From a virus: a DNA stretch of 64,000 bases. The notes below the pieces were generated by a model. It was not told the origin of the DNA and made no database searches. It saw only the letters and a list, made by a program, of their open reading frames with translations. A program made the translations under genes and the position numbers. Location: the UHGV virus genome UHGV-0279745; one strand, 5' to 3'. Within the stretch, counting starts at the first letter, position 1. Each line of letters starts with the position of its first letter. This document shows, one piece after another, positions 11,050-53,015 of this stretch.

Positions 11050-13287
11050 ATGAAAACGCCAGTAGAGCTAATGAGCAGTGTGGCTGACCGTGAGATTAAT
11101 ATCACCGAAGTATCAGGTGCAAGGGCATCGATGGTAGGCAACCATATGAAGTCTGCGGTCCCTATCGACAATCCTGAACCATCGCCGCATTTTACAGGCG
11201 CAGATATAAACTACCACGATTTTCTGTTCAACGACGTTGTAGAAGATCCCGGTAGCATCTGCCACTATATGACCAAAGACGGTCGTCAGCGCCGCGCGAC
11301 GTTTACACGTTATGGTCGTCGTGGGGATTCTAAAGCGTTAGAACATGCTATCTTCTTCCGCCGTGCAGAAATGAAGGGCGGTAAAACCATGATAGATGTG
11401 CTGGAGATTAACTTCTATACTAACCACGACAACATCTTCTCATCTGAGAAACGTGAGTCGATGAAACTGCGTAGTATTTTACGTGGTGAAACCGATCAGT
11501 TGGAAAAGGATGAAATCCTTACAACGATGTCGTGTATGGTGGAAGGCGAGTACGCCGATAGCGTTGTGCTACCAACCGTTACGATTTCGCATCCTGATAT
11601 CATCGAGGATTCTTACACCATCTCTGAGTACGCCGCCCAAAAACTCCACGGTTATGGTTTGAAAATCGTTGAAAAGACGCTACGTGAAGACGAGTTTTTA
11701 CTGGATACTTACGGTTATATCGATCCGAACGGTAATCGCGTCCCACGGTATTTCCCGGATGTGGGGGAGGCTATTCGTGACGATGGGTTGGTCATTGCAT
11801 CGCGTCGTTTCGATGAACTTTACGGTGCAATTGATGCGTCGCTTGGGGAAACCCAACACGTCTCTCCGTTCTTTGATAGTTGCGAATATGTGGATGCCGA
11901 TCCCGTCCATTATAAAGCACGTCTTGCAGGTGACAAAGAACTGATGGAACGTAGCGGTACACGTATCGTCGATATCCAGGTGTGGCGTGATGAAACGTCT
12001 TGCGCGAATGGTGCTAACAATATTTCTTGTACCGAAGAGAACAAACGAGAACTGGATAAATACGCATTAGCATTGAAAGACTATTACAATGCCATCGTAC
12101 GATTCTATTTCTCGATGTCCCGTGACAAAAATATTATCTGGTCGCCGAAAGCGTGTGTGTTGTTGGAGAAAGCGTTCGCTTCTGAAACGTACGAGGTCTA
12201 TCACGAGTTTCGTGAAGAGATACGCGTGGTGATTGATGAAGCAATTCGTCGTGGTGAATACGGTAAAGAAAATGTCAGTCAGCAGATTCTTTCTAAGTTG
12301 ACCTCGCCAGTACAACGTGGACTCAGCGATCCCATCAACACGTATACCATTCGTATTGCTGTTCGTTATCCGATCCCGGTAACGGTGTCGTCTAAGATTA
12401 CCGACCGCTCGGGTACGAAAGGGATTGTTGGACGTGTATTACCCGTTGAACAGATGCCGATTAACGAATTCGGTGAACGTGTTCACGTTTTACGTTCGAT
12501 GAACGCTGTAATTCGTCGCTCGACATATGCAGCATTATTCCACATGTATTGGTCAGCTGCGTCTGAACAGTTGAAAATGCGTCTCAAACCATTGCTGGAT
12601 GAAGGACGTATCAGCGAGAGCTGGGAAATCCTGATGGATTATCTATCACGCTATAATCCAGAATGGGCCAATACACTACAGGCAACGCATCCTACGGAGG
12701 ATTTACAACGCGAACTTTTCAAAGAGATTTACGATTTTACAATCCGTATTTACTTACCACATGAACTTGACGACACGCCAGTCGATATCAGTGAACGGTT
12801 GGGTGAATTTAAACCGCGTAAATCCAAACTCCTGATTACTAATTTCGATGGTAAACAGGAATGGACAAAAAATGAGTTTTACGTAGGTGGTGTGGAAACA
12901 TTACGTCTGGATAAAACAGGTCGTGAGTTTTCCAGTATTTCGTCAATGTATCTGAATTATCTGGGTACGATAGACGCGTCTAACCAAGGCCGTGGTTCGT
13001 ATCCGATAAACTATAAAACGCTAAAATGGGCTGGTCCTTCGGAAGAACGACTGTTAGCGGGTTATGGTCCAGGTAACTACGAAGAAGTTCACGACAGGGC
13101 AAATAACCCTGCGGTGCATCGTGAGATTTTAGTAGGGCTTTATCGATCTCAAACCCCGTCTAATCCGGGTCCACTGGTAGACCGAAATAAATTCCCGTTA
13201 GGGGATTCACAGATTGACAGGATGATGAAAAACATTCACAGCTGTGAAGGGTTTGAATTGGTGAAAATGAAAAGGGGCGATGAATAA
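11050..13287 (+). CDS. multisubunit RNA polymerase beta subunit, C-terminal module
   Basis: [12 protein letters not shown] resembles [39 protein letters not shown] resembles [37 protein letters not shown] resembles EMEVWALEAYG. All in the same order as bacterial beta. Confidence 0.75.
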   Translation: [745 protein letters not shown]

Positions 13288-15386
13288 TGAAGGGCACTCC
13301 AGTTCACGTGCGTGATCTGTGTAAACTGAACTCGGATCAGGTGTGGCTATTGCGCGGCAGATATGAAGTGACGTTCGATGACGGGATAACCTTAAACATG
13401 TCAGGACGCCACATTAAAATCAGTTGGCCTTATTGGGGGCTAACACGATTTTATCCGCAGATCCCAATCAGTTCGCAAATGGCGTATAAACATGGCGACA
13501 CCGCTACAGATGACGCACATCTGAAGTTTATGTCATTGGCAGCTGTGGCAGCACGTAAAGCGGGTGTGGATTTAGCAGATACCCGCTATTTATTGCAGCA
13601 GCACGTCTATGCGGATGCGTTTAACTTATCGGTGAAAAATCTGTTGTCGTATTGTGTCACGATTGACTACGATACGATGATGGAAATTTACCAACACCGA
13701 AATTTTACGCAGATTCATCAGTGGGCACAAATGTATCCTACTGGGTACGACGAAGAAGGTCGGGATATGATCGAAGAAGCGTATCTTCTTATCGAAGATA
13801 TCTTCAAAGACCCACAACTTCGTTTAAACCCTGTGGTGATGTCGGTCTTGGATAAGACCATCAAAATGAACCAGGTTCTCCAGGCGTATATACGTGGGAA
13901 AACATCAGAGATTGATTCTCGCGTTTATTCTAACCAGGTATGGGAAGGTTTCTTTACGGGTCTACATTCTGTAATTAGCCGTCTGAAAGAAGCGGGAGCG
14001 ACGTCACGTTCTCACCTGTATAATACCGATAAAATCGCCGATGCGGAATATGCGTCACGTAAGCTACAGTTAGCAGCCAACGTGCTAATGTATTTCGAAT
14101 ACGACGATTGTGGTACGCATCATGTTCATCGCCACACGTTTACAGAAAGTAAACTGGAGCGTAAGAAGTACGACGCGATGGTGGGAATGCGATATCGTTT
14201 TGAAGGCGTGGGTGGCCCGTGGCTACGATTCGAGAAAGGGGAGTTTGAGAAAGTCTTAGGCAAACCTATTGAGTTTCGTACCGCGATGTGTTGTAAGGGG
14301 ATGGCACGTCAAAGCATTTGTGCAACATGCATGGGTGATTTGATTTATAACCTTTCGCCGGGAACATCCCCAGGTCACTTGGCATCAACCTCGATATCTG
14401 AAAAGGGTACACAGGGGATTCTCTCAACGAAGCACTTGGACTTCTTACGCTATCTGCTGAATCTGGTGCTGACTCCAAGAATGCGGGATTATCTTGGGGA
14501 GTATAAACACAACTCCGTAAAAGGGTTGAGTTTACGGGAGAAACCACAGTACGGTAATTGGGATGAATACCAACTCGTTATTTCTGATGAAGTCTATTCT
14601 GAAATCAGCCAAATCGCGTATCATGACGATTTGGAAGTGATCGACGAAACGGCATTGCCGGAGATTAACGAACTGACCTTTTTGCGGTTGGATGAAGCTG
14701 GGAATGTGTTGGCTGAAGATCCCATTGACGTCCGTATGGGGGTTTGTGGTAACTTCTCGAAAGCCTTCTTGCATTTCTTCCTGAAACAGCGCGATAACAT
14801 TACCTTCCCGTCGAAGAAACTGGTACGGATTCCCCTGAAAGGATGGAAACCGAGTTGGCCGATACTAATTTATACGAATCGGTCTGAATCTATGGCGGAG
14901 TTTGTAGCAGGGTTAGAATTGAAACTTCGTTCGGTTGCGTCTGATAAATCGGATACTTTCGAACAGTTCTCTGATGACTCAATGCGTTTGAGCAAGAAGT
15001 CGGGTAAGGTAAAACCAACGACACTGGTTCAGATGCGTGGTGCTACGGAGAAACAATGTACGCACGCGTTATTTGATGTGTTTAAATATATCCAACGTAA
15101 GCTCGGTGGTATTCCGATGACTCACATCGCGATTATGCTGGCGATATCACGCGTTGAATCACCGACCAATCCTTTCCCGGCGGTTGGGTTTGATAGTGAA
15201 GATGCTGATGTGATGGATGGCAAACGTTTCGAGGATCACAATACGTTGATTGCGATGCGTTCAGCTGTACCGATGTTGTTATTCGAAGGCCAACAGAAAA
15301 ACCTGGACAACGTGCGTTTCTACACGTCGCGTAAACGTCCGGCGTCGTTATACGACAATACGGTGGCCGCGACTATCATTGAGTAA
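13287..15386 (+). CDS. multisubunit RNA polymerase beta' subunit, C-terminal module
   Basis: Translationally coupled to the beta module (1-nt overlap). KGMARQSICATCMGDL resembles the bridge helix RKGLADTALKTANSGYL; ASTSISEKGTQGILSTKH resembles trigger-loop AAQSIGEPGTQLTMRTFH. Confidence 0.6.
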   Translation: MKGTPVHVRDLCKLNSDQVWLLRGRYEVTFDDGITLNMSGRHIKISWPYWGLTRFYPQIPISSQMAYKHGDTATDDAHLKFMSLAAVAARKAGVDLADTRYLLQQHVYADAFNLSVKNLLSYCVTIDYDTMMEIYQHRNFTQIHQWAQMYPTGYDEEGRDMIEEAYLLIEDIFKDPQLRLNPVVMSVLDKTIKMNQVLQAYIRGKTSEIDSRVYSNQVWEGFFTGLHSVISRLKEAGATSRSHLYNTDKIADAEYASRKLQLAANVLMYFEYDDCGTHHVHRHTFTESKLERKKYDAMVGMRYRFEGVGGPWLRFEKGEFEKVLGKPIEFRTAMCCKGMARQSICATCMGDLIYNLSPGTSPGHLASTSISEKGTQGILSTKHLDFLRYLLNLVLTPRMRDYLGEYKHNSVKGLSLREKPQYGNWDEYQLVISDEVYSEISQIAYHDDLEVIDETALPEINELTFLRLDEAGNVLAEDPIDVRMGVCGNFSKAFLHFFLKQRDNITFPSKKLVRIPLKGWKPSWPILIYTNRSESMAEFVAGLELKLRSVASDKSDTFEQFSDDSMRLSKKSGKVKPTTLVQMRGATEKQCTHALFDVFKYIQRKLGGIPMTHIAIMLAISRVESPTNPFPAVGFDSEDADVMDGKRFEDHNTLIAMRSAVPMLLFEGQQKNLDNVRFYTSRKRPASLYDNTVAATIIE

Positions 15387-22662: not shown

Positions 22663-23172
22663 ATGGCAACTAAAGATATTTCGACACAAGATGAACGCCC
22701 ATCAGCGGTAAGACGCGCTGAGGAAAATGCGGTAACTTACAGTCAGGATGATGCGTACCAGGTGCGGCTTATTGCTACTCAGCTCGATGAGGCTGGCGGG
22801 GCAATTAGCCAAAATAAACCGAAAGATACCCCAGAAGCTGACGACGCTTTCCGTAAGCTGCATCAATCGTTCCGCACGTTATTTGAACTACGTGGTCAAG
22901 CATTCATTGATGCGTTCAACGTGTTCGTTGAAGCTGCAATTAAACACAAACGTGGTATCTTCTACTATCCGAATGTGAACTACCATTTGGATTGGTTTTA
23001 CGATTCCGCTGAACGTGAAACATACGTCGTGTTTATCAATATGTTAGTACGTTTCGCAAATTCTCAGGATAAAGCAAACTTTGCTCAGCGTGACAACGTT
23101 GGACGTTTGGTACAACGTGTGACTGATCCAGAACTGCAACACTTACTGGCTTACTGCTTCAACGCGGCATAA
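22663..23172 (+). CDS. hypothetical protein
   Basis: 169-aa ORF, followed by the terminator at 23176-23220. Confidence 0.5.
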   Translation: MATKDISTQDERPSAVRRAEENAVTYSQDDAYQVRLIATQLDEAGGAISQNKPKDTPEADDAFRKLHQSFRTLFELRGQAFIDAFNVFVEAAIKHKRGIFYYPNVNYHLDWFYDSAERETYVVFINMLVRFANSQDKANFAQRDNVGRLVQRVTDPELQHLLAYCFNAA

Positions 23173-23175
23173 AAG

Positions 23176-23220
23176 TATTACCCTACTCCCGAAGGAGTAG
23201 GGTAACGTTTATTTTTTTTT
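23176..23220. terminator. bidirectional terminator hairpin (12-bp stem TTACCCTACTCC)
   Basis: Stem 23178-23189 / 23194-23205, flanked by an A-run and a T-run; lies between convergent genes. Confidence 0.65.
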
Positions 23221-26864: not shown

Positions 26865-28531
26865 GTATGGAGATGACAGCAAACATTGCGCAACCGCAGT
26901 GGAAACTCGATGAACTTCCTGCACTGTTAGAACAGCGCATGGAAGAACGCATCGATTCTGTTAGCCAACTCAATCTCTACATGCAACGAAATGAAGCAGA
27001 CCTGATTTACGGTTCTCGCCTTATCGCGCAAATTGAAGCGATCTTACGGGAAATACGTAATGCAGGGTTGAACCGTGATGTTGCTGTAGCGACTGAATCG
27101 TTGCGTCCTGGCACAATCCCGAAGGCGGTACAAAGTGTCCTGACGTCGAATTATTCCAAAACACACCAGAAAGAAACGGTGGTGGCATTAGAGTCTTACG
27201 CCAATTTTGGTAAGATTAGCCTTATCGTGATGGTGATGATGGGGATAATGAAAATCCTCAGTTGGATTATCAGCAACGCCGTTCCTTTTGCAGGTGCTGC
27301 GAATATTGACGGGAACGACTATCGCGAGAAACTGGAAGAGAAGTTGGCCGATGTTCCTTTCACAGAGCGCCTGAAAACAACCGTACTGAAAGAAGTTTAT
27401 CTGGTACTGTCAAAAGGTTTGAAAGACAGCGAGTTAAGCAACCTGGAGTTATCTCTTTCGCTGGCTGACGACGTTTTTGTGAACATGGAAGCTGAAGAGT
27501 TTCTAAATAAACTCGCCGCTGCGTTAGGTAAATCACCGTTTATCGATACGTTTAAGAACCATCTTAAACGTCGGCAGAATGAGCTGCAGGTTATTCAGGA
27601 TCTGCTCGATACGCTGCTTCGGACGAATATCGGCTACGGTGTATTTGACTTCGGGGTTGCTGAGGAAGTCTATAACGGTTTGCCGCCTGATGTAAAACGT
27701 GCTGGAGTGAACATTCCGTCAGATATTCAGTTCAACTTAATGAGCACGCTTCTTGACAGTTTTGCCGGTGCGCTTCAGGACTTAGACCAGTCGCTGAAAG
27801 ACATCAAAACCTATTACCTGTCGAATAATCCGAAGGTAGGCACATCGCAAGAGAACCAAGTTGCCGCTGTGCATCTGGTTCGTGCGTTAGGCGAGATCAA
27901 TGGCCGAATTGAATATACTGCCACGGAATTTGGACGACAGAAAGGTAGCCCGGGTCCAATTTTGCGTGTAAAAGACAAGGTTGAGCTTCTCGGCTATACC
28001 ACACGTGAATTAGACAACGGTTGGATGATTGCGTCGATCGGTGCTAACTCTTTCTTTGGCTCCACAACAAACCTGGAGATGATGCGCCAGGAGTTGAGCT
28101 TAAGTAACGGGGATTACCGTGAGCTGTTGGCATGTCTGATTACACTGGCACGTAGTGGTATCTCGGATGGTGTAGCGAACACCGCGCTAGACAAGTATAA
28201 GGTGTTGGAGAAACGTGTCGATCAGGTTGTAAAAACCCTGAAAGATATGGCACGTCAATCACGTTCTGGCGTCGACAGTCAGAAATGGCAGGCGATGGAA
28301 CAGGCGTTTAAAGACCAAGTGACGCGAGGGGAAAACTTTAACCTTCACGGTCGTGAACTGACCACGATGATGGTGTTAAACCCTGACCGTAATGTCTGGG
28401 ATTCTGTTGCGCACAGTGCAAACATGATTAACATGTGGTGCAAGGCCGCAGGGTCTATGGCAACGGTGTTGAAGCGTGCCAAGTCCAACCCACTTGTGAA
28501 AGGTGGGAAGTTCAATAAATTGATCGATTAA
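26861..28531 (+). CDS. hypothetical protein (possible transmembrane segment)
   Basis: Start placed at ATG 26861, overlapping the upstream stop; hydrophobic stretch ISLIVMVMMGIMKILSWIISNAV. Confidence 0.55.
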   Translation: MSMEMTANIAQPQWKLDELPALLEQRMEERIDSVSQLNLYMQRNEADLIYGSRLIAQIEAILREIRNAGLNRDVAVATESLRPGTIPKAVQSVLTSNYSKTHQKETVVALESYANFGKISLIVMVMMGIMKILSWIISNAVPFAGAANIDGNDYREKLEEKLADVPFTERLKTTVLKEVYLVLSKGLKDSELSNLELSLSLADDVFVNMEAEEFLNKLAAALGKSPFIDTFKNHLKRRQNELQVIQDLLDTLLRTNIGYGVFDFGVAEEVYNGLPPDVKRAGVNIPSDIQFNLMSTLLDSFAGALQDLDQSLKDIKTYYLSNNPKVGTSQENQVAAVHLVRALGEINGRIEYTATEFGRQKGSPGPILRVKDKVELLGYTTRELDNGWMIASIGANSFFGSTTNLEMMRQELSLSNGDYRELLACLITLARSGISDGVANTALDKYKVLEKRVDQVVKTLKDMARQSRSGVDSQKWQAMEQAFKDQVTRGENFNLHGRELTTMMVLNPDRNVWDSVAHSANMINMWCKAAGSMATVLKRAKSNPLVKGGKFNKLID

Positions 28532-28535
28532 AAAA

Positions 28536-28580
28536 GATTACCCTACTCCCGGAGGAGTAGGGTAACTTTTATTATTTTTT
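28536..28580. terminator. bidirectional terminator hairpin (same 12-bp stem as 23176-23220)
   Basis: Stem TTACCCTACTCC / GGAGTAGGGTAA at 28538-28549 / 28554-28565, followed by a T-run; lies between convergent genes. Confidence 0.65.
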
Positions 28581-35550: not shown

Positions 35551-36822
35551 ATGGCAAATTTCGCAAAAACTCGCGCCGCTCGTGAATCGATGGAAGCGGC
35601 CGATGAAGTAATCGACGGTATCAGCAACGTTGAACCGGCAGAAGAGAACCTGGACGTCCAACTTGCGGACGTAGCATCTATCGACGGTCAGCTCGATCAG
35701 CTGGAAACCGACGGTGAAACCCTGGCTGCCGATACCGAGCGTACTGAAGACGCTATCGAACAGGCGGAAGAAGCCGTTGCTAACGGTGAAGAAATGCCGG
35801 AAGAAGCGGTTGCCCTGCACGAAGTGGCACAGGAATCCATCGCACGTCGTTGGTGCCTGGAACGTACTAAGCTGGCTCGCGAATCCTATCGTCGTGGCCG
35901 TGGTATGACTGCTGCTGCCCAGGAAGGTTGGAAAGAAACCCTGAAAGATCTTTACGATCGTTTCATTCAGTTCTGTAAAGAAGTGATTGCGAAGATCAAA
36001 GACCTGAAACTGAAATATTTCAACGTCGGTAAGACCGCACAGAAACGTGCGAAGAAATATCAGGAAATGCTGCGTAAGCTGGGCAAACAGAAGAAAGATG
36101 AGATCTCTGGTGGCTTTATCACCAAGCTGTCTATCGAAGGTAAATTCGATGCTGCTGGCTCTATCGCTATTGCGAAAGAAGTTACCGCAGGTAAAGCTAA
36201 AGGTTCCATCGCTGTTCTGGAAAAACAAGCTGGTGAAGCTGTGACTGCCGTTACCAAAGGTGACGATGACGCATTCAAGGCAATGCGTGGTGATCAGCCG
36301 GTAGAACTGTTTGGTAAAGCTGCTTCTAAACTGCACACTCTGCCGAACTTTGAAAAAGGTGATGCGTCTAAACTGCTGGCTCTGCCGGGCAACGCTTACA
36401 TTCAGGCTGGTACTAAAGAACTGGCTGGCGGCCACAAGTTCACCGCAATTGCTTTCATGAGCACCGGTGACGCTTCTGACGATAAAGACGTGAAAACTCC
36501 GTCTGTTTCTGAAATGGCTGGTGCTGCTTCTGCTCTGGAAGCGATCGGTAAAGGTTTCGAAGCCGTACTGAAAGATTTCCGTGCTTACGATTCTGAAATC
36601 GTGAAGCTGCAACAGGCTGCTGAGAATGCTGCTAAGGCGCTGAACAACGAAAAAGACGATAGCAAGTGGGATGGCCTGCGTAACGCACGTCAAGCTGCCG
36701 ATTGGTCTGTTAAGAACTACCAGACCCTGAACCGCGCAGTTAGCTATGTTGCTAACACCGTTATTAGCGGTCTGAATGGCTACCTGGGTGCTGGTATCGG
36801 TGCTTACGAAAAATCTAAATAA
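35551..36822 (+). CDS. abundant acidic protein, tandem paralog A (virion/inner-body-like candidate)
   Basis: 423 aa with strongly optimised codons; shares an MANF-K-ARESME N-terminus, a central RKLGKQKKDEISGGFI block and a GLNGYL-AGIGAYEKSK C-terminus with 36905-38170. Confidence 0.7.
   Translation: MANFAKTRAARESMEAADEVIDGISNVEPAEENLDVQLADVASIDGQLDQLETDGETLAADTERTEDAIEQAEEAVANGEEMPEEAVALHEVAQESIARRWCLERTKLARESYRRGRGMTAAAQEGWKETLKDLYDRFIQFCKEVIAKIKDLKLKYFNVGKTAQKRAKKYQEMLRKLGKQKKDEISGGFITKLSIEGKFDAAGSIAIAKEVTAGKAKGSIAVLEKQAGEAVTAVTKGDDDAFKAMRGDQPVELFGKAASKLHTLPNFEKGDASKLLALPGNAYIQAGTKELAGGHKFTAIAFMSTGDASDDKDVKTPSVSEMAGAASALEAIGKGFEAVLKDFRAYDSEIVKLQQAAENAAKALNNEKDDSKWDGLRNARQAADWSVKNYQTLNRAVSYVANTVISGLNGYLGAGIGAYEKSK
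36082..36121 (+). repeat. 40-bp perfect direct repeat, copy 1 (shared with 37478-37517)
   Basis: GGCAAACAGAAGAAAGATGAGATCTCTGGTGGCTTTATCA is identical in both paralogs. Confidence 0.8.
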
Positions 36823-36904: not shown

Positions 36905-38170
36905 ATGGCGAATTTCTACAAAAACAAAATTGCTCGTGAGTCTATGGAGTCTACTTCTACTGTAGTTCCAGACGGCATCGAACTGCCAGCAGAATCCGTA
37001 GAAGGCACTCTGGCCGATATCGAGCATGACACCAAACCGATCGAAGCTCTGGACGCTGACGCTGAACTGCTGGCAGAAGACGGCGACGAAACTGACGCTC
37101 AGCTGGATGTTCTGGATGAAGCTCAGGCTGCTGCTGACGGTGAAGGTGCTGGCGAAGACGGTGAAGAACCGATGGACGCCGAAGAAGATATGCCGGACGA
37201 CGCTGCGACTGCGCTGGACGTTGCTCAGGAATCTATCCGTTCTCGTTGGAACTTCGAACACCGTTCTTCTGTTGCTCACGAATCCTACGGTTCTCGTAAC
37301 CGTCGTCAGGTTGCTCGTGAATCCCTGTGGGAAGACATCAAAGCCTTCCTGGGCCGTATTCTCGATTGGCTGAAAGAACAAGGCCGCAAACTGAAAGATC
37401 GCTGGCTGAAATTCCACAACCAGGGTAAATCTATTCAGGCGCGTGCTAAGAAATACGATGAAGTTATTCGTAAGCTTGGCAAACAGAAGAAAGATGAGAT
37501 CTCTGGTGGCTTTATCAAGTCTCTGTCTATCGACGGCAAGTTCGTCGGCGATAATATTCCGAAACTGAAAGGTATCCTTAACCAGGTCTCCTCGTTCTAT
37601 AGCGCTAAGATGCCTGCCATGGCCGCTAAAGCTGCTGAAGTGGTTTCCGATGTTACCAAAGGTAATGGTGTTAAAGTTGAAAAACTGAAAGCCGACTTTA
37701 CCGAACTGTCCAAACAAGACAGTCTCCAAAACTTCAAGCTCGGTAACATGGCGGTGAAAACCGAGTATGACAACGAAGGCGGCTTCAGCTCCACCTTTGT
37801 TGAAGCTGAAAACAGCGTTGAAACTAGCGTGAAAACTCCGTCTGTTGGCGAACTGGCCAAAATCAATGCTCTCTTCAACGAAGTGGGTAAACAGATTGAG
37901 AAAAACGTTCAGGATTATCGTAAAGTCGAAAGCGCGCGTAAAACCTTTGAAGATAATATCGATAAGCTCCTGAAAGAAGTCGATAAAGTTAAGATCGACG
38001 AAAAACCGGAACTGACCGAAGGTGTACGTGCTGCCCGTCGTTTCATCACCAGCGTTAACCAGGGTCTGTCTCTGGGTGAGAAGGTTATTGCTTCTACTCA
38101 GAAACACCTGGCCGGTGGTCTGAACGGTTACCTGAGTGCCGGTATCGGCGCTTACGAAAAATCTAAATAA
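36905..38170 (+). CDS. abundant acidic protein, tandem paralog B
   Basis: 421 aa; paralog of 35551-36822; optimised codons; followed by a strong terminator. Confidence 0.7.
   Translation: MANFYKNKIARESMESTSTVVPDGIELPAESVEGTLADIEHDTKPIEALDADAELLAEDGDETDAQLDVLDEAQAAADGEGAGEDGEEPMDAEEDMPDDAATALDVAQESIRSRWNFEHRSSVAHESYGSRNRRQVARESLWEDIKAFLGRILDWLKEQGRKLKDRWLKFHNQGKSIQARAKKYDEVIRKLGKQKKDEISGGFIKSLSIDGKFVGDNIPKLKGILNQVSSFYSAKMPAMAAKAAEVVSDVTKGNGVKVEKLKADFTELSKQDSLQNFKLGNMAVKTEYDNEGGFSSTFVEAENSVETSVKTPSVGELAKINALFNEVGKQIEKNVQDYRKVESARKTFEDNIDKLLKEVDKVKIDEKPELTEGVRAARRFITSVNQGLSLGEKVIASTQKHLAGGLNGYLSAGIGAYEKSK
37478..37517 (+). repeat. 40-bp perfect direct repeat, copy 2
   Basis: Identical to 36082-36121. 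Confidence 0.8.
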
Positions 38171-38247: not shown

Positions 38248-38289
38248 TTTCAGATATATATTACCTAGGTGAGATTACACAGTAATCTC
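38248..38289 (+). promoter_or_regulatory. candidate phage promoter (TATATTAC core) plus downstream inverted repeat
   Basis: 27-nt element TTTCAGATATATATTACCTAGGTGAGA is identical to 46505-46531; TATATTAC at 38257-38264; perfect inverted repeat GAGATTAC-aca-GTAATCTC at 38271-38289; about 68 nt upstream of ATG 38325. Confidence 0.5.
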
Positions 38290-38324: not shown

Positions 38325-38966
38325 ATGAGCCGCATTAATTTAACTGATTTTGTTGATGGTGTTGTGTCTACGGATAAAGGTGTTGTTACGATGGTGGCAC
38401 CGAATAGTAAAGTTGTTACTTTAAATCCGGTAGAACTGATTTCTATTTCTACCTGGTTGCGCTTACTTTCTGGTAAGAAACCTAAAGACCAAGCGAAGGG
38501 TGGCTTATTAGTTGGTACACGTGAGTTTGTTTTCAAAGACATAACCCAAGATAAACTGGACAGCATTGCTAAAGAACTGAACGGCAAGCATAAAACTCGT
38601 GACATCGGGTGTGCCGAATATGACGGAGTAACGTACCATGCGTTTCTTGATAGTCACGTAGCATTGCGTGAAAAAGAAAATGGGATGTACGATTCAGTTT
38701 GTTTCTTTCACTTAATCGCACCAACAGAAAACGAAGCTGTGTATGAAACCGTTGAAAAATCGGCGGAAGCTGTTATGGAAACGGTGTCAGAACTTATAGA
38801 AGGGATGAAAAGAATCCCACGTGTGTTGAAAGTTACTGATGGGGCTTTCGATTGTTTTAAATTATTACCCCTAATAGCTAGTAAAGAATACGAAGATGAG
38901 AACACCTTCGGACTATTCGAAATTAGTCTTTCGGAAGCAGTTGTTACTTTCTTTGAAGATTTATGA
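38325..38966 (+). CDS. hypothetical protein
   Basis: Start at ATG 38325 with RBS AGGAG; first gene downstream of the promoter-like element. Confidence 0.6.
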   Translation: MSRINLTDFVDGVVSTDKGVVTMVAPNSKVVTLNPVELISISTWLRLLSGKKPKDQAKGGLLVGTREFVFKDITQDKLDSIAKELNGKHKTRDIGCAEYDGVTYHAFLDSHVALREKENGMYDSVCFFHLIAPTENEAVYETVEKSAEAVMETVSELIEGMKRIPRVLKVTDGAFDCFKLLPLIASKEYEDENTFGLFEISLSEAVVTFFEDL

Positions 38967-45509: not shown

Positions 45510-45541
45510 ATTATGTCGTCCGTAACCTAAAGGATTTGTTA

Positions 45542-46342
45542 ATGAGTAATCTACTTACTTTCAGAATGTCTGGCCAAACGTTAATTCAAATCGACAAGTT
45601 CGAAGAAGAGAATTTTTCGAAACCGTCGAAGTTGTTAGAACGTTGCCTTAATGTTATTCCCGGTGGCGAACAACGCCAGTTGGATTACATCATGGCGTCC
45701 AGTGCTGACAAAACGATTTCTGTTATTTATACCGTAGACGGTGTACAGAATTGTCGCTTATTACCAATCGAAGAAAAAGGGACGTTAGGTCATTTGTTGT
45801 TCCTGCACGCGATCACAACTGCCGTGGTGTCTGGTGCTTTAGAAGCGCAATACGGCTTTGCTTATTGTTACTTCTATGCTCAGAAATTAGCTGCAGCGGT
45901 TATTCCAGGGCAACAAGAAACCTATCCTCAGTATATTGAACGTATTCTCCCTTCACACTTTAGTGAGTCGGAAGACTACGACTTCAATGCGTTTCGTTTT
46001 ACCGTGGTGGGCGAAGCCCGCGATCCTGAATACACAACAGCGGTTCGTGCGGTGGTGCGCTATTCTGTTATTTCTACAGACAGCGGTACATCAAATAACT
46101 TTAATGAAGTGTATCCGGTCTTGCAGTTAGGTCCTTATGTGACTTTCAACAGCTACGTACCATTCAGTTGTCAGCTTGTGGGTCCGCAGGATAACGATTC
46201 TATTCTCCCTGTTGCGGAAGAAAAGTCATTGTTTATTCGCGAATCTGTAGAAGCTATTAGCGATAAGCGCTTTATGATTTCTTCGAAGACGGGCATTAAC
46301 GATCCTGAAATCGCTGTAATGGATAAGATGCAAGGTCTGTAA
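45542..46342 (+). CDS. hypothetical protein
   Basis: Start at ATG 45542 preceded by CCTAAAGGA. Confidence 0.55.
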   Translation: MSNLLTFRMSGQTLIQIDKFEEENFSKPSKLLERCLNVIPGGEQRQLDYIMASSADKTISVIYTVDGVQNCRLLPIEEKGTLGHLLFLHAITTAVVSGALEAQYGFAYCYFYAQKLAAAVIPGQQETYPQYIERILPSHFSESEDYDFNAFRFTVVGEARDPEYTTAVRAVVRYSVISTDSGTSNNFNEVYPVLQLGPYVTFNSYVPFSCQLVGPQDNDSILPVAEEKSLFIRESVEAISDKRFMISSKTGINDPEIAVMDKMQGL

Positions 46343-46346
46343 AAAC

Positions 46347-46390
46347 TTCCCGTTACCTCTATGGGTAACGGGAATACCTTTTATTTATTC
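46347..46390 (+). terminator. rho-independent terminator
   Basis: Stem CCCGTTACC / GGTAACGGG followed by a T-rich tract. Confidence 0.55.
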
Positions 46391-46504
46391 CTAAACGACA
46401 CGCAGAAGTCATTTAACCGTTAAGACGACTAATTACCCTTTAAAAAGAAAATTGCGTCAGAATGCGTTTTAGAGCGTTCTAGAGGGTATATGGATTCAAA
46501 AAGA

Positions 46505-46546
46505 TTTCAGATATATATTACCTAGGTGAGAGTTTACGTAATACTC
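46505..46546 (+). promoter_or_regulatory. candidate phage promoter (TATATTAC core), second copy
   Basis: Same 27-nt element as 38248-38274; TATATTAC at 46514-46521; imperfect inverted repeat downstream; about 64 nt upstream of ATG 46578. Confidence 0.5.
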
Positions 46547-46577
46547 ATTTATCGAATACCTAATTAGGAGTTATATC

Positions 46578-46721
46578 ATGATTTCTGTAAAACACAAAAA
46601 AGCTATCTTCGCTGTTGTTATCGCTGTTGTTCTGGGCTGCCTGTATCTGGACATCGACAAAGGCTACGACACTTGCATTGACAACGGTAATTCCGTTGCA
46701 CAGTGCACTGGTCGCGGTTAA
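46578..46721 (+). CDS. putative small lipoprotein or membrane peptide (47 aa)
   Basis: Not in the ORF track (under 60 aa). RBS AGGAG; n-region KHKK, hydrophobic AIFAVVIAVV, lipobox-like VLGC, three Cys in the predicted mature part; optimised codons; followed by terminator at 46726-46758. Confidence 0.45.
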   Translation: MISVKHKKAIFAVVIAVVLGCLYLDIDKGYDTCIDNGNSVAQCTGRG

Positions 46722-46725
46722 TGTA

Positions 46726-46758
46726 TAAGGCACCTTCGGGTGCCCTTAATTTTTTTAT
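46726..46758 (+). terminator. rho-independent terminator
   Basis: Stem AAGGCACC / GGTGCC(C)TT with TTCG loop, followed by a T-run. Confidence 0.55.
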
Positions 46759-46775
46759 TAATTGGAGCATAAAAG

Positions 46776-47591
46776 ATGATTACCATTAAAGATTATTTTC
46801 CGCGTGGACTGAGCAATGAAAACTTCGTTCCAACTGAAGACATTGCCATCGTAACAGAGTCTAGTGATAAGTCTTTTAAACTCTACTTGAGTACGGCAGC
46901 AGGAAAATCCACTCTTATCCTTCGCGAACCTGAGGTGATAAGCATCTGCTCGTTTGGGGGCGGTGTAGAAGGAACGATTAATTGGTTGAAATCCAGAATG
47001 CATCGTTTGCTTATCGTGAACACCGATCCTGTGATTCGTTTACAGCAATTGAAATCGTTGAATGAAGTTATCGTCGGATTATTGGAACATGAAATGTTCG
47101 GTAATGCTGCGATTGCGGAAGAGATTAAATCTGTAGAACTAATCGAGTGGAGTGATATCGAATACGAACGTGCTGCGTTATTCGCAATGTACGGTGACGA
47201 TAATCCTGTTGTGTTTGCACAAACATTAGATAACGTTACAGTAACAGCGCGCGTATTGTTTGGCTTACAGCGTGTTGAGTTTGAACTGAAACACGTTTAT
47301 GTAAGTAATGCTCCAGAGATGGTGGAAACGTTGACTCGTGCGTTCGCTTACCCGTTAGACGGAGAATGGGAACAGCAGATTAATGAAGCGTTAGGTGCGA
47401 TGCTGTTCTTAGCAGGCACACTAAGGAAAGAAGAGAAATTAGAAGGTCGTGTCTATCCAGAATACGATTTTGTTTGTGAAGAATGTGGAGCACAGTATCA
47501 AATACGTGTTCCTTTAACCGGCCTGACAATCCCGAAAGCCAACGTGCAATGTAAGGAATGTGGTCATGTTCAATACGTAGCGATTAAATAA
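46776..47591 (+). CDS. hypothetical protein with C-terminal CxxC...CxxC zinc-ribbon-like motif
   Basis: 271-aa ORF; RBS GGAG; C-terminus CEECG-(x22)-CKECG. Confidence 0.6.
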   Translation: MITIKDYFPRGLSNENFVPTEDIAIVTESSDKSFKLYLSTAAGKSTLILREPEVISICSFGGGVEGTINWLKSRMHRLLIVNTDPVIRLQQLKSLNEVIVGLLEHEMFGNAAIAEEIKSVELIEWSDIEYERAALFAMYGDDNPVVFAQTLDNVTVTARVLFGLQRVEFELKHVYVSNAPEMVETLTRAFAYPLDGEWEQQINEALGAMLFLAGTLRKEEKLEGRVYPEYDFVCEECGAQYQIRVPLTGLTIPKANVQCKECGHVQYVAIK

Positions 47592-47604
47592 AAGCAACCC
47601 CTAA

Positions 47605-47650
47605 TCCCGAAAAGGATTAGGGGTACACTTTATTTATTTTCGCATTTTCA
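47605..47650 (+). terminator. rho-independent terminator
   Basis: Stem CCCCTAATCC / GGATTAGGGG followed by a T-rich tract. Confidence 0.6.
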
Positions 47651-47667
47651 ACATAGGAGAAAAGTTC

Positions 47668-47826
47668 ATGAAACATGAACAGTTGTTTCAAAGGCTAAAC
47701 GAGTTGTCCGTAAAACAGCTCGAATTTCAACGAAGGGTTAGTGAAATAGCGCAACCAACGTTAACTCAGCCCAAAGTTGCTTATCCAAGAAACACCCAGT
47801 TGATAGTTGAAAGGAGAAGTAACTGA
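47668..47826 (+). CDS. hypothetical small protein (52 aa)
   Basis: Not in the ORF track; RBS AGGAGA 7 nt upstream of the ATG; followed by a hairpin cluster. Confidence 0.35.
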   Translation: MKHEQLFQRLNELSVKQLEFQRRVSEIAQPTLTQPKVAYPRNTQLIVERRSN

Positions 47827-47833
47827 TAAAAAA

Positions 47834-47922
47834 CAAGGGGTGTGTCAGCACCCCTTTTCTTAGCTTTAACTTTTCCGAAGAGAAGTTAAAGCAAGGTACG
47901 CTGCACCAACAGCGTACCTTTT
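47834..47922 (+). terminator. cluster of three consecutive stem-loops (terminator or structured RNA)
   Basis: Hairpins AAGGGGTG/CACCCCTT (47835-47856), CTTTAACTT/AAGTTAAAG (47864-47891) and GGTACGCTG/CAGCGTACC (47895-47918) followed by TTTT. Confidence 0.45.
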
Positions 47923-48114
47923 ACAGCACCATTACGGAAACGTAATGGATTTCTTTAATCACCCTACAAAGAGGGCTTATACCATGAACAATGGTTACTA
48001 CTTTACTGACAAAATGCTTGCAGAACAGAGTGCAACAGAGACTGGCGGAACAGTCTCTGCTGTACGGTGTCAACACATAAAGTTGTTGACGTTTTTACAA
48101 CATTACGAAAGGTA

Positions 48115-48282
48115 ATGAAAATGAACGAATATCAAATACAGATGTTCAATACCGCGATGCGAAATCGTGAAAAACAAATTCAGTTTAACCAACGCATGGA
48201 CGAATATGTTCGTCTCGGCCTCGTTGCGGCACCGAAAACGGTTAACAACCACAATGTTCACCAACCACCTGTAAGGAGATAA
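48115..48282 (+). CDS. hypothetical small protein (about 55 aa)
   Basis: ATG at 48115 or 48121 with GAAAGG upstream; the track's GTG-extended version is 48067-48282; followed by a hairpin at 48299-48319. Confidence 0.35.
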   Translation: MKMNEYQIQMFNTAMRNREKQIQFNQRMDEYVRLGLVAAPKTVNNHNVHQPPVRR

Positions 48283-48424
48283 GTTACTAACTAATAAAGG
48301 GGGTGTTGCTACCACCCCCTGCTTAGTTCGGTAGTTGTTTTCCATTCATAATTAATAGTCTTCTGTTTTTTTTTGCTTTCCGAGACGCATAAGGGGTTAT
48401 AGGGGGAGCCGAAGCTCCCCAGAC

Positions 48425-49987
48425 TCAAAAGAGTTCGTCACCCATGCCGCCGGTAAATACGTTAATCGACGAGGCTGTTACAGTTTCTTCTTTATCACAA
48501 TCCCATGGCAAAATGCCAACATCACGGAAAGGTATTACAGTATAATGATAAGCTTCTTTGGTATCAATAATTGTACGGTGTTTACCGCGTTGTACTTCTA
48601 AATAACTGTGTCCGCTGACGACACGTTTGTTAAAATACATCTCACCGTCAGCTTCGTTGTCTAAGCTAGAGCAGTTGTCGTAAAGACCACGACCAGGTAA
48701 GCTCTTACAGAAACTTGCTGGGTCGAGTGCTTTTAATTTTTTGCCTTCTGGTGAGATTTGGTGTGGTGCTAAGAGGAAACCACGATTACGTACCACTTGG
48801 ATGTTTCGCGCGATACGATAAATTTCTTTAATGTCACTACCCGCAATACCGTTACCGTGCCCTGCTTTGCTGATAGTACCGAAATAGTCTCCGCGTATTC
48901 CAGCTACATGATAACCTCGACGTTTTAAATCTAAAATCAAATCATTCAAATAGTGAATTTTAAAATCGGAGTTTGTGTGCTTTTGGAAAATATACTCCCA
49001 ACCGTTTGCCCGCATTTTACTACAGAGGTAATCTGACATTTGTGCATTGTGTAGCGCTTTTTCTTCGTCAGTTGCCGTTTCAGGTGCAACCATTACCGGA
49101 GCTGTACCTTCAAAGTGTCCGTAAAGTGCTTGATACGCGTAAGCCAAGTTAACATCTAATTCGTTTTCTAAACTTAAATCCAGAATAACCGGCTGTAAGT
49201 CACCTTTAACATTCGCCATCACCTTTTCTGGGGTGTTGAATACAGGTATGCTAATAGAGAGCAATAAACTGAATAATGACTTACAGTTAAAGGGCAGTGC
49301 AGGCATCAGCCAGAGTTCTTCGGTGATCCCTTTGTTACAGCCAAGCATTTGGTTAATTGCTTTCCACCCCGTACGTAACCCGTTCCCCGCTGCTTTCTTA
49401 CTGATAGAGTCGAATACATGTACGAAGGGTGCTTTATTGTCAGTAATCAATTCCCCTACCAGAGAAGGAATCTTATTATGAGAGCGTTCACTGAACGTGG
49501 ATAAGGTATCCTTAAGGTCGTTGAGCGCCGTTTGTAAATCAACACGCGTTTCAGTGCCGTTCAGTGCGCCTAACGTACGACCCAATTTTTGTTTCAGTTG
49601 TACGCCTTGAATAGCTTGACGTAACTGAAAGTAGTATTGTGCTACTTGGCGATTAAGATGCTCGATGCGTGCTTCTGGTTCTTCTGGAATATCATCTTCC
49701 AGGAATTTGGTAATCGTATCGTATAGAGGACGTATTTGCGTAGTGGCCAGTTTCAAACGTTTCATGACGTTTGTGTGGTCGTAAGGCATACCGCCGTCTA
49801 TGATGGATGTGATGATATCCTTGATTTCGACGAGGGCGGCACGTTCGTCACCTTCTTCTGCGTAATCAGGAAGCTTAGCCTCTAACAGCACTTTTCTTAT
49901 GATGTCGTGGTCCTTTTCAGGATCGGTCAGAAGACTTTCAGCGTATAATGTGGCTAAGGCGGTTATCAACATCATTTTGTTATTCAT
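48425..49987 (-). CDS. hypothetical protein (520 aa, function not recognised)
   Basis: Long minus-strand ORF set among + genes; no nucleotide-binding or catalytic signature that I can assign with confidence. Confidence 0.6.
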   Translation of the reverse strand: MNNKMMLITALATLYAESLLTDPEKDHDIIRKVLLEAKLPDYAEEGDERAALVEIKDIITSIIDGGMPYDHTNVMKRLKLATTQIRPLYDTITKFLEDDIPEEPEARIEHLNRQVAQYYFQLRQAIQGVQLKQKLGRTLGALNGTETRVDLQTALNDLKDTLSTFSERSHNKIPSLVGELITDNKAPFVHVFDSISKKAAGNGLRTGWKAINQMLGCNKGITEELWLMPALPFNCKSLFSLLLSISIPVFNTPEKVMANVKGDLQPVILDLSLENELDVNLAYAYQALYGHFEGTAPVMVAPETATDEEKALHNAQMSDYLCSKMRANGWEYIFQKHTNSDFKIHYLNDLILDLKRRGYHVAGIRGDYFGTISKAGHGNGIAGSDIKEIYRIARNIQVVRNRGFLLAPHQISPEGKKLKALDPASFCKSLPGRGLYDNCSSLDNEADGEMYFNKRVVSGHSYLEVQRGKHRTIIDTKEAYHYTVIPFRDVGILPWDCDKEETVTASSINVFTGGMGDELF

Positions 49988-50537: not shown

Positions 50538-52832
50538 ATGAAAGATACCCGAATCTCTAATCTGGAGAAACTCGTACAAGCTGGTAACTCGCTGGTACAA
50601 AGCGTCATTAGTAACAACAGTGCTGGCGAAATGTGGAACACCATCGTTGCTGGTGAGTCTGTACGTAGCAACACGAAAGTTTTTGGTACCCTGCGTGACG
50701 ATGCTGCACAGCACTACGCAAACGCGTTTGCTGGCGGTAAGAAAATGTCCCACGCTGCGGAAGTTGCTTCTGCAATGATTCTGGGTGCTGCTGGTCACGG
50801 TATGGACCTGCAAGAAAAAGTAGCGCAAGAATACGCTAAGCCAGAATTCCATAGCCGTTTTAACCTGGACGTTGCGATTCCTGGTTCCCAAGCTGGTAAC
50901 GGCGACTGGGGCAAAGAGCGTATGGTTGTTGCTCAGGAATACTACACCAACAAAGATTACGACAAAAACCTGGGTCTGACCTGGACGCTGAACGTACGTG
51001 CTCTGGAAACTCAGTCTCGTTTTGCTGAGACTCTGTTCCCGACCATCACCGTTGACACCAACGATGTTGGTATTACCGTACGTACCAAAGTGACCACCGT
51101 TTCTCGTGGTGTCATGCACGCGTTACTGACCAAAGACGTTGTTGAAGATCATCGTCGTAACCTGCACGAAGCGCTGACTGACCACACCGTTCTTCAGGAC
51201 GAAGCGATCAACATCGTTCCTTACGTAATGGAAACCGGTGAAAACGCTGAATACTTCGTAAGCGAAGAACTGGTACCGAACGAATCTGTTCGCCTGGGTC
51301 GTGTACCTCCGTACCCGACTAACTACCTGAGCTTTGCTAAAGACACTCTGAACCTGTTCCAGCTGTCTGCGCATCCGGGTATCGTTCAGGAAGGTTACGA
51401 CGAAACTGATGAAATCGCACCGGGTTGTGCTCTGGGCAGCCTGCTGATTTCCGTACGTAAACCGACCGAAGAAGCGAAAGCAGGTAAATTCATCAAACTG
51501 CACGTTCGTGACATGCAGTTCGCAACCTTCCAGCGTCCTGCTGAAGGTGATGGCCGTGAGCTGGTACTGCAATTCCGTCGTACTGCGTTCTCTCTGAATG
51601 CGAAAACCACCGACTGGAAAGGCGAAGCTATTCCGGCACTGAAATCACTGGAACAGAACTCCTACACCCTGCGTTATGTGATCACCATCAACATGTCTCT
51701 GTTCACTACCGGTCAGTTCGGTGGTAAAGTTGACATCGCTGGTCACAAACTGGAAATCGAAGGTCTGTACGACGCTACCGGTAACAAAGTTGATACCAAA
51801 TCTGGTACCGGCAAAGTTATCCTGGACGGTCTGAAACTTGAACTGATGGGCTGGCGCTTCGATGGTACTCGTACCAACGAAAACCGTCGTACCCAGGGTC
51901 TGCTGCTTGACCCAATCTGGGAACAAGAAAACTACAAACTGCAATACGGTTCTCCGATCCTGACCAAGTCTCCGGTTGGCGTTGAATACGACGATACCGA
52001 ACGTCTGGACGACCTGATTTCCGCAGTTAACATCCGTAACGAACAGCTGGCTATCACTCAGACGCTGTCTTACACCGAAGCGGTACGTAACGCTGCTGCA
52101 AGCATGATCACTCCGTGGGACAAACCGGCCATTCGTGGTCTGGGCCGTCACTGGGTTGCTCCGTGGTTCAAAGAGTCTGACTACAACGTTGATGAAGTTG
52201 TACAGTCCCTGGATACCAAAGATGCACTGATCAACGCTCGTCAGGGCCTGGTACAGCGTATCGGTAATCAGGTAACTCAGGCTATCCAGGAATCTCGCTT
52301 CATTCCTGCGCTGCGTCTGTACACTGCCGATCCGGACATTCTGCCGAAAGTTGTTATTGCAACTGACGAACCGACTGCATCTATGCTGCTGCTGGTACAG
52401 GGCGACCAACGTCTGCTGGGCGATCGCTACGAATACGAAGTGATCACCACCAACGATGACCGCTGGCGTATCTACAACGCAGCTGACGGTTCCTGGACTC
52501 GTCGTCTGCAATGGTTCCTGAAAGTTCCGACTGCGGACGATGGTTCCTACAACGTGCTGAACTGGGGTAACCACTTCTGGTCTCCGATCATGGTTACCAA
52601 CATCAACATTCAGCGTAACGGTTCTACCTCTAAAGAGCTGGCTGTACAGCCGCGCAACGCGCACATCTGCCACTGCCCGATCACTGGTCTGATCTGGGTT
52701 AAAGGCATCACCAAACTGGTTGAAGAAAAACTGGCTTACAATGTTTCTGTTGAACAGAACGGTCAGAAACAAACCGAAGGTGGTGTAGCAGGTAACGTTG
52801 CTGGCGAAGGCAAAGCTGCTGCTGGTAAGTAA
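50538..52832 (+). CDS. very highly expressed structural protein candidate (major capsid or tail sheath; identity unresolved)
   Basis: 764 aa; extreme preferred-codon usage (ctg, cgt, ggt, aac, gaa) producing long stop-free antisense frames; RBS AAGG; followed by a strong terminator. Confidence 0.8.
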   Translation: MKDTRISNLEKLVQAGNSLVQSVISNNSAGEMWNTIVAGESVRSNTKVFGTLRDDAAQHYANAFAGGKKMSHAAEVASAMILGAAGHGMDLQEKVAQEYAKPEFHSRFNLDVAIPGSQAGNGDWGKERMVVAQEYYTNKDYDKNLGLTWTLNVRALETQSRFAETLFPTITVDTNDVGITVRTKVTTVSRGVMHALLTKDVVEDHRRNLHEALTDHTVLQDEAINIVPYVMETGENAEYFVSEELVPNESVRLGRVPPYPTNYLSFAKDTLNLFQLSAHPGIVQEGYDETDEIAPGCALGSLLISVRKPTEEAKAGKFIKLHVRDMQFATFQRPAEGDGRELVLQFRRTAFSLNAKTTDWKGEAIPALKSLEQNSYTLRYVITINMSLFTTGQFGGKVDIAGHKLEIEGLYDATGNKVDTKSGTGKVILDGLKLELMGWRFDGTRTNENRRTQGLLLDPIWEQENYKLQYGSPILTKSPVGVEYDDTERLDDLISAVNIRNEQLAITQTLSYTEAVRNAAASMITPWDKPAIRGLGRHWVAPWFKESDYNVDEVVQSLDTKDALINARQGLVQRIGNQVTQAIQESRFIPALRLYTADPDILPKVVIATDEPTASMLLLVQGDQRLLGDRYEYEVITTNDDRWRIYNAADGSWTRRLQWFLKVPTADDGSYNVLNWGNHFWSPIMVTNINIQRNGSTSKELAVQPRNAHICHCPITGLIWVKGITKLVEEKLAYNVSVEQNGQKQTEGGVAGNVAGEGKAAAGK

Positions 52833-52844
52833 TCTTGCTTAAAA

Positions 52845-52890
52845 AGAGTCTAAGCCCTTCGGGGCTTAGACCTTTTATTTTTTTTTTCTT
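52845..52890 (+). terminator. rho-independent terminator
   Basis: 10-bp stem GTCTAAGCCC / GGGCTTAGAC with TTCG loop, followed by an 18-nt T-rich run. Confidence 0.75.
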
Positions 52891-53015
52891 TCTATTATTT
52901 TTTGGATAGATATTATTAAAGGGAGACGGCCAGTTGGTTTTAAAGGAGTATGTATGGAAAAAATACAGTTTAAACTAAAGATATGTGTCATCATTAAAAT
53001 TTAGCTTGGGTTCCC

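Follow-up and report, generated by a model that had tools for sequence, protein, structure and literature searches.

We analysed an element at positions 46505-46546 of a 64,000-nucleotide stretch of the virus genome UHGV-0279745 (hereafter the window), together with the open reading frame (ORF) at 46578-46721 that follows it and encodes a protein of 47 amino acids (aa). The observations as a whole are probably best explained by a phage-specific early promoter that drives a real gene for a membrane-anchored protein. The element itself very likely belongs to the class of early promoters used by the virion RNA polymerase (RNAP) of phiKZ-like jumbo phages, an assignment made by analogy with phages whose transcripts have been profiled.

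A repeated element in the genome of a phiKZ-like jumbo phage

Pfam and PHROGs matches and synteny identified the source of the window as a phiKZ-like jumbo phage of the SPN3US/Erwinia clade. Among the Pfam matches were the major capsid protein PhiKZ_MCP (50538-52829, E = 4e-209), the internal head protein phiKZ_IP (36905-38167) and a divergent DnaB helicase, divDNAB, on the minus strand (48425-49984). PHROGs revealed two genes for RNAP beta-like subunits, of the virion or the non-virion set, at 11050-13284 (phrog_3295) and 13287-15383 (phrog_3015), as well as a phage DNA polymerase gene. The 439-aa virion protein encoded upstream of the element shared 66-69% aa identity with its counterparts in Asesino and phiEaH2 (Erwinia) and SPN3US (Salmonella). 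Gene order was also that of the relatives: a virion structural protein, a 266-269-aa protein, an islet of small genes, a helicase on the opposite strand and the major capsid protein.

No close DNA-level match to the window was found in a collection of 50,697 phage records. IMG/VR and metagenome contigs of 220-225 kb were 97-99% identical to it, and in 2399 blocks of an index of public assemblies we found the exact 47-aa protein, carried on contigs of ~220-225 kb (loci L084-L087). This uncultivated jumbo phage lineage is therefore widespread.

The element begins with the promoter core TTTCAGATATATATTACCTAGGTGAGA (46505-46531, + strand), a 27-nt sequence that is repeated exactly at 38248-38274. 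A 25-mer inside it was present in exactly two copies in the window, even with three mismatches allowed, and in none of 100 dinucleotide-preserving shuffles of the window. Looser searches of the window with a 16-mer (three mismatches) and an 11-mer (one mismatch) yielded no further copies. The octamer TATATTAC, at 46514-46521 within the core, was not significant alone (2 found, 1.9 expected), so the significance rests on the extended repeat. Over their 42-nt spans the two copies were identical at 34 positions; the last 15 nt differed, with an inverted repeat in each. These data agree with the earlier note on this DNA, which had taken 46505-46546 and 38248-38289 to be the same element. An Rfam scan of 46300-46800 gave no match at E ≤ 1.

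The first copy (38248-38289, + strand) lies ahead of a gene at 38325-38966 that encodes a 213-aa protein annotated without a function and lacking any PHROG or Pfam match. A promoter look-alike, TTTTGGATAGATATTATTAAAGGGAGA, was also observed at 52888-52926, between the terminator of the major capsid gene and the ORF at 53016. It is degenerate, matching the core at 19 of 27 positions, and may represent a different promoter class or a decayed copy.

Conservation of the element in related phages

When 2.1 kb around the element were compared with the 50,697 phage records, the sole matches were stretches of 40-130 nt on the element itself (query positions 955-1082), and the DNA-level matches to the element region were all in SPN3US-like jumbo phages. 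A more sensitive search revealed four to six places with the element per genome in most SPN3US-like phages. The core TTTCAGATATATATTACCTaGGTGAGA was nearly invariant in related genomes whose remaining DNA no longer aligns, and the element was always located 5′ of small genes without assigned function, in the same orientation as those genes. In SPN3US (JN641803), the TATATTAC of the gp66 promoter is at ~65,418.

An exact scan of IMG/VR with CAGATATATATTACCT returned 77 stretches, from which sorting yielded 41 distinct elements. These have an A/T-rich upstream consensus, atTaaAaat..TtT, followed by the invariant core, which continues as aggtGAgA. The corresponding A/T-rich upstream part in the window is at 46490-46504 (+ strand) and would cover approximately -35 to -20 if transcription started near 46526. 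A run of at least five T was present within 45 nt upstream in 25 of the 41, and a ribosome-binding site and start codon followed 3′ of the core at a median distance of 56 nt, always co-oriented. The first genes behind the true elements were diverse, and every one tested belonged to a PHROG of unknown function or to none.

The remaining ~20 IMG/VR matches had none of this flanking similarity and appear to be coincidental, as may happen with an AT-rich 16-mer in so large a collection. On non-jumbo contigs of 19-51 kb (L032, L045, L047, L052 and L079), the sequence TTGAAAATATTTTCAGATATATATTACCT was found after a terminator and before a gene encoding a signal-peptide protein (MKLPVKLLMSLISL...). 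It is probably a promoter of the host type whose likeness to the element is accidental.

The element resembles the early promoters of phiKZ-like phages

In all jumbo phages that encode RNAPs, the presumed early operons are preceded by a conserved AT-rich motif of ~10 nt with its centre near -10, and wherever transcripts have been profiled this motif is an early promoter that has been assigned to the virion polymerase (PMC7598289). The primary start site of PHIKZ054 has been reported with the early promoter motif (PMC8244752). The early promoters of phiKZ and 201phi2-1 are conserved at -20/-30 or have a T-rich motif upstream of -19 (PMC11512511, PMC8244752), and genes of unknown function have likewise been reported behind the early promoters of 201phi2-1 (PMC11512511).

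The AT-rich motif of our element, ATATATATTAC, is inside the invariant 27-mer, and all of its occurrences, namely the two window copies and the 41 distinct ones in relatives, are 5′ of a Shine-Dalgarno sequence and ATG. The beta-like subunit genes in the window are those of a multisubunit RNAP with split beta/beta′ subunits. In the first 50 kb of phiKZ, TATATTAC was present in seven copies, each in an intergenic region, on the + strand and with an ATG 34-72 nt further on. The seven sites have a common upstream context, AAAcatattTAAAcag, and one of them is ahead of PHIKZ054, the nuclear shell gene. Because the octamer and the layout are common to this mapped class of phiKZ early promoters, we read the element as an early promoter. 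A search of the literature for the bare string TATATTAC gave no relevant match.

The likeness to the phiKZ-type early promoters (phiKZ, 201phi2-1 and AR9) extends to the TATATTAC octamer, the A/T-rich upstream region, the location 40-70 nt ahead of the leading gene in operons of hypothetical genes, always co-oriented, and the split beta/beta′ RNAP subunits of the phages (PMC7598289, PMC8244752, PMC11512511). In contrast to those promoters, the conserved block here is longer (27 nt) and runs downstream into CCTAGGTGAGA. It is also associated with a covarying hairpin, of which none was seen at the seven phiKZ sites, and it occurs in only two to four exact copies per genome.

By the same analogy, we infer early timing, dependence on the virion polymerase and a transcription start ~5-8 nt after TATATTAC, near G46526, as expected for phiKZ-type promoters centred near -10. 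The multisubunit RNAP of the virion would most likely read the element, recognizing it through the A/T-rich stretch and the invariant core. The promoter postulated in the earlier note has every comparative hallmark of one; its generic description, on the other hand, gives way to that of a predicted virion-RNAP early promoter.

A covarying hairpin follows the core

Each of the related copies can form a hairpin that starts within GTGAGA, the end of the promoter core; in 37 distinct elements the first helix began within the first 5 nt of the GTGAGA position. The stem arms differ from copy to copy. More than ten distinct complementary pairs were observed, including GAGATTAC/GTAATCTC, GATAGA/TCTATC, GAGAGA/TCTCTC, AGATTC/GAATCT, AGAGTTA/TAACTCT, GTGAGAGT/ACTCTCAC and GAGTGAA/TTCACTC. 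In a folding test in which arms were swapped among the 37 elements, native pairs had a stability of -6.5 kcal/mol as compared to -4.1 kcal/mol for the chimeric pairs, and none of 2000 permutations was as stable, although this test ignores the relatedness of the elements and overstates their independence. G-U pairs were frequent in the hairpins, which points to a structure of the RNA or of the sense strand, and many of the stems were followed by TCTTTT (UCUUUU in the transcript). RNAalifold predicted no structure from the ungapped alignment because the loop lengths differ.

In the first copy the hairpin is strong (GAGATTAC-ACA-GTAATCTC at 38271-38289, -8.2 kcal/mol, z = -3.3). Its weak counterpart in the second copy is the promoter-proximal stem-loop at 46526-46548 (+ strand; GUGAG.AGU...ACU.CUCAU), which would be located at the 5′ end of the transcript. 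The mRNA would then have a leader of ~50 nt that starts with a stem-loop with covarying arms and ends with AGGAG-N7-ATG.

The stem-loop is most likely a 5′-terminal RNA structure that stabilizes the early mRNA. Alternatively, it may cause pausing or attenuation, since premature termination right after start sites has been reported in phiKZ and 201phi2-1 (PMC10914365, PMC11512511). As in 5′-terminal mRNA stem-loops such as that of the ompA leader, and in the premature, promoter-proximal terminators reported from the 5′ untranslated regions of phiKZ and 201phi2-1, the hairpin is within a few nt of the predicted 5′ end and is often followed by UCUUUU. It differs in that the start is a predicted one and in that the stems are short (6-8 bp).

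A different kind of promoter hairpin is that of phage N4, which is upstream of the start and is recognized as DNA with specific bases. In contrast, the hairpin described here follows the AT-rich core, has a sequence that can covary and makes use of G-U pairs. The N4 enzyme also differs in being a single-subunit polymerase. Common to the two systems are a virion-carried polymerase and a small hairpin adjoining a conserved promoter sequence (PMC4496689).

A GCGTT repeat upstream of the promoter

Upstream of the promoter, at 46463-46487 (+ strand), is the non-coding block TGCGTTTTAGAGCGTTCTAGAGGGT, in which GCGTT..AGA forms a direct repeat with a period of ~10 nt. The pattern GCG..AG.GCGTT was invariant at the syntenic locus in eight relatives belonging to several genera. 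It was located 30-60 nt before the core, and the length of the spacer between it and the promoter varied by up to ~11 nt. The block is unique in the window and does not accompany the copy at 38248. Among the fetched loci, blocks of this type were found only at the syntenic locus, once per related genome, with two overlapping matches in Asesino. The block may serve to bind a regulator. Of the whole arrangement, only this upstream repeat and the covarying hairpin next to the promoter were not found described.

The 47-aa protein is a conserved, membrane-anchored peptide

We are highly confident from comparative sequence data that the ORF at 46578-46721 (+ strand) is a real, conserved gene. It is preceded by the Shine-Dalgarno sequence AGGAG (46566-46570, + strand), 7 nt before the ATG. 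In its product, MISVKHKKAIFAVVIAVVLGCLYLDIDKGYDTCIDNGNSVAQCTGRG, a basic N-terminus is followed by an apolar helix (residues 9-24) and a C33-x9-C43-TGRG tail. The product gave a full-length match to phrog_8574, the SPN3US gp66 family (E = 3.4e-23), with residues 1-47 aligned to all 47 positions of the profile. Using tblastn (E up to 10) we identified matches in 61 phage records, all of them SPN3US-like phages, and a homologue was present in the same syntenic islet at all five inspected loci. Compared to three close relatives, the ORF showed three to six differences, all of them synonymous third-position changes, while its flanks were 79-99% identical; in one comparison all six substitutions were synonymous although the flanks were only 79% identical. 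The phrog_8574 match and the exclusively synonymous changes mark the ORF as a genuine, conserved gene, and the signal-peptide-like N-terminus pointed out in the earlier note is supported.

A word-indexed protein search found a single near-identical protein. An exhaustive phmmer search of 1.84 billion representatives found seven and added five more members to the family. In an alignment of 12 sequences, residues I10, C33, G37, S39, C43, T44, G45, R46 and G47 were invariant and H6, Y30, N36 and N38 were nearly so. In all 12 homologues the first nine residues had a net charge of +2 or +3, and the apolar run was 16-22 residues long. AlphaFold2, given the single sequence, predicted a long helix at residues 4-35 and a short helix at 40-43 (mean pLDDT 76.6).

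These features make it very probable that the protein is membrane-anchored. The simplest reading is an anchor with the N-terminus in and the C-terminus out, leaving a periplasmic tail of ~22 residues: by the positive-inside rule, the positive charge of the N-terminus indicates that it is cytoplasmic. C33 and C43 probably close a disulfide loop that ends in TGRG. The first cistron would accordingly encode a 47-residue protein with a cytoplasmic N-terminus, one membrane helix and a periplasmic C-x9-C tail, a peptide that might act at the cell envelope early in infection.

The known homologues SPN3US gp66 (AEP83899.1), Asesino gp84, ChrisDB gp82 and Caitlin gp76 resemble the 47-aa protein in sequence (45-60% identity to distinct homologues), length, islet and the C-x9-C-TGRG motif. 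This orthologue differs from them in having VLGC at the end of the helix, followed by an acidic stretch (D25/D27). A further difference is that SPN3US gp66 abuts the next gene, whereas here the gene is followed by its own terminator. The T4 proteins Imm, Sp and those of the RI type are likewise early, envelope-acting proteins that combine a single N-terminal anchor with a small periplasmic part. We found no homology to them, and the protein described here is much smaller.

One of the phmmer representatives, P0007 (381 aa), contains four tandem copies of Y-x-x-C-I-G-N-G-x-S-x-x-Q-C, the same Cys-loop motif as in the tail of the 47-aa protein. P0007 is otherwise unrelated and longer, with an N-terminal signal-like segment and membrane segments, and its only Pfam hint is a thionin match below threshold.

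Terminators, the downstream gene and the islet

The transcription unit is bounded upstream by an intrinsic-terminator-like hairpin at 46347-46374 (+ strand; a 12-bp stem, then TACCTTTTAT), which ends the structural-module gene at 45536-46342 (phrog_8163). The ORF is followed by an intrinsic terminator at 46729-46756 (+ strand) consisting of GGCACC-UUCG-GGUGCC (46729-46744), CTTAA and a run of seven T (46750-46756). This terminator is conserved in close relatives and is of the same style as the other terminators of the phage.

The next gene, at 46776-47591 (+ strand; phrog_10180), encodes a 271-aa protein with a C-terminal CxxC...CxxC zinc ribbon, and has homologues in SPN3US gp70, Asesino gp88, Caitlin gp78 and ChrisDB gp84. 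An AlphaFold2 model from a four-sequence alignment had a pLDDT of 51, too poor to interpret. The gene starts 19 nt after the T-run, which leaves no room for a promoter of its own, and the cassette is therefore probably not transcriptionally closed. The layout of promoter, ORF and terminator reported previously is real, with the terminator where it was said to be; it is the description of the cassette as self-contained that probably does not hold. The 47-aa gene is more aptly seen as the opening gene of an early unit with a leaky terminator. Partial read-through of the terminator would allow expression of the 271-aa zinc-ribbon gene, and this is probably how that gene is expressed.

An all-against-all comparison of the islet in five genomes identified two constant members in a fixed order, the 47-aa protein and a 240-294-aa protein, while the rest varied. 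In the interval from the 271-aa gene to the helicase (47600-48420), small genes differed even among near-identical metagenomic genomes.

Alternative explanations

Several observations weigh against an early promoter driving a membrane-anchored peptide. Our search for transcript data on this phage and on other SPN3US-like phages found none. There are two copies of the element in 64 kb, and two to four exact cores per related genome, versus 28-32 early promoters in phiKZ; the element may be a special subclass rather than a general early promoter. The hairpin of the 46505 copy is marginal (-3.5 kcal/mol, z = -1.47), and a fixed-register count of paired positions gave a weak signal (61.7% as compared to 58.1% in shuffles). 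The topology and the disulfide of the peptide are rule-based predictions. As to function, Pfam gave no match for the 47-aa protein and nothing meaningful for the homologues P0004 and P0006.

One alternative is that the bacterial RNA polymerase uses the element as a host sigma-70 promoter, with TATATT as the -10 hexamer. TATATT matches TATAAT at five of six positions, the A/T-rich upstream region resembles an UP element, and the TTGAAAATATTTTCAGATATATATTACCT look-alike of the L045 group precedes a signal-peptide gene on non-jumbo contigs. Nevertheless, we consider this very unlikely: a sigma-70 consensus scan did not flag the element, and there was no acceptable -35 hexamer at 16-18 nt. Invariance that spans 27 nt in different genera, and that does not end with the AT-rich part but takes in CCTAGGTGAGA beyond it, is the pattern of a phage-polymerase promoter and not of a sigma-70 promoter. 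Moreover, phiKZ-type phages transcribe without the host polymerase (PMC7598289, PMC8244752), and this phage encodes RNAP subunits of its own. As for the look-alikes, we estimate, without a computation, that chance matches of an AT-rich 16-mer are to be expected among 2.9 million contigs. Another alternative is that the promoter and stem-loop module serves mainly as a homology anchor for recombination, by which small early genes would be exchanged among loci and among phages; this is the model proposed for PeSL (promoter-early stem-loop) cassettes of the T4 type. A PeSL-type layout was indeed seen; the gene content of the islet varies, even in near-identical metagenomic genomes, while the promoter and the flanking modules are fixed; and the promoter is the only stretch that can still be aligned at the DNA level. 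However, no transferred gene and no breakpoint at the repeats were seen. The 183-aa and 213-aa genes of the window are dissimilar to Caitlin gp74, so that no gene was found to have moved between promoter-led loci, and the order of the 47-aa and 271-aa genes is the same in each of the five genomes. Shuffling as the main role is therefore improbable, if somewhat less so than a host promoter.

The alternatives to a simple membrane anchor concern the VLGC at residues 18-21, from which the earlier note had derived a lipoprotein-like product. In a genuine lipoprotein, Lgt and signal peptidase II would act at VLG/C21 to give a lipidated peptide of 27 residues. Having no Asp at +2, it would be sorted to the outer membrane and would block a receptor or further phage entry early in infection, in the manner of T5 Llp and the Cor proteins. 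These are small, envelope-acting proteins with a lipoprotein-type signal and disulfides, expressed early or from a prophage, that block a phage receptor. The sequence does have a charged n-region with three lysines (K5, K7 and K8), an uncharged 12-residue h-region (A9-G20) and a Cys at 21, and passes a permissive PROSITE-type pattern. Early expression, which is itself predicted, would suit the timing of an exclusion protein. On the other hand, VLGC fails the strict lipobox [LVI][ASTVI][GAS]C because of L at -2; none of the 12 homologues passes the strict pattern and five, including this orthologue, pass the permissive one. A Cys was present at the lipobox position in six of the 12 aligned sequences, preceded by G or A in five of the six. 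V, S or A took its place in SPN3US gp66, Asesino gp84, the Huxley-type sequence, P0002, P0003 and P0004, as well as in phiEaH2, and P0006 had V at -1. The lipid-modified Cys is normally invariant in a lipoprotein family, and lipidation therefore cannot be the conserved property of this one. Furthermore, the apolar run does not stop at the Cys but takes in the LYL beyond it and reaches 16 residues, as it would in a membrane anchor, and no similarity to Llp, Cor or any other Pfam family was found. Compared to Llp and Cor, the mature part would be only 27 residues long and the lipobox is marginal and not family-wide. A membrane-anchored peptide with a periplasmic tail is consequently a better fit to the sequences than an obligate lipoprotein. 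Cleavage and lipidation of this particular orthologue are possible at its marginal lipobox, but a genuine lipoprotein is unlikely, and superinfection exclusion by the peptide is speculation. We rejected a third candidate, the outer-membrane spanin (o-spanin) of a lysis system, a role that the earlier note had also raised. Small size and a lipobox-like Cys are what it has in its favor. There is, however, no overlapping or adjoining i-spanin gene, the islet and promoter are of the early type and do not form a lysis cassette, the Cys is not conserved and the mature part is not proline-rich. The neighbors are a structural-module gene and a cytoplasmic-looking zinc-ribbon protein. An o-spanin is accordingly the least credible of all these explanations, and extremely so.

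Implications

The promoter class and the protein family are already catalogued, and the arrangement is an ordinary one for jumbo phages. What the analysis adds is an assignment of the window to a phiKZ-like lineage of RNAP-encoding jumbo phages, one that turns up very often in metagenome assemblies, and a precise early-promoter consensus for the SPN3US clade, for which we found no transcript maps. It also corrects an annotation, as one cysteine is no ground for attaching a lipoprotein or spanin label to a real, conserved gene. The hairpin and the upstream repeat are leads for the mapping of early transcription in SPN3US, a genetically tractable model.

A more far-reaching and doubtful possibility is that these early promoters are coupled to an undescribed regulatory layer, made up of the stem-loop and the GCGTT..AGA repeat, and that the product is an immediate-early envelope factor. 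If so, the stem-loop could protect early mRNAs from 5′-end-dependent decay by the host, could be a regulated attenuator, or could tag transcripts made in the early infection vesicle. The GCGTT..AGA repeat, confined to this locus, could bind a phage or virion regulator. The disulfide-looped, membrane-anchored peptide would then act on the envelope, for example by excluding superinfecting phages.

Other repeats in the window

The phiKZ-type internal head proteins are encoded by tandem paralogues of 423 aa (35551-36822) and 421 aa (36905-38170), which are 76-91% identical to each other at the DNA level in stretches and adjoin the first promoter copy on its upstream side. Two terminator-like hairpins of 50 nt, at 23171-23220 and 28531-28580, are 90% identical to each other and 5.4 kb apart. 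Their sequence is ATTACCCTACTCC-CGAAGG/CGGAGG-AGTAGGGTAAC followed by a T-run. Other intergenic terminators have in common a T run followed by C, ahead of the next unit.

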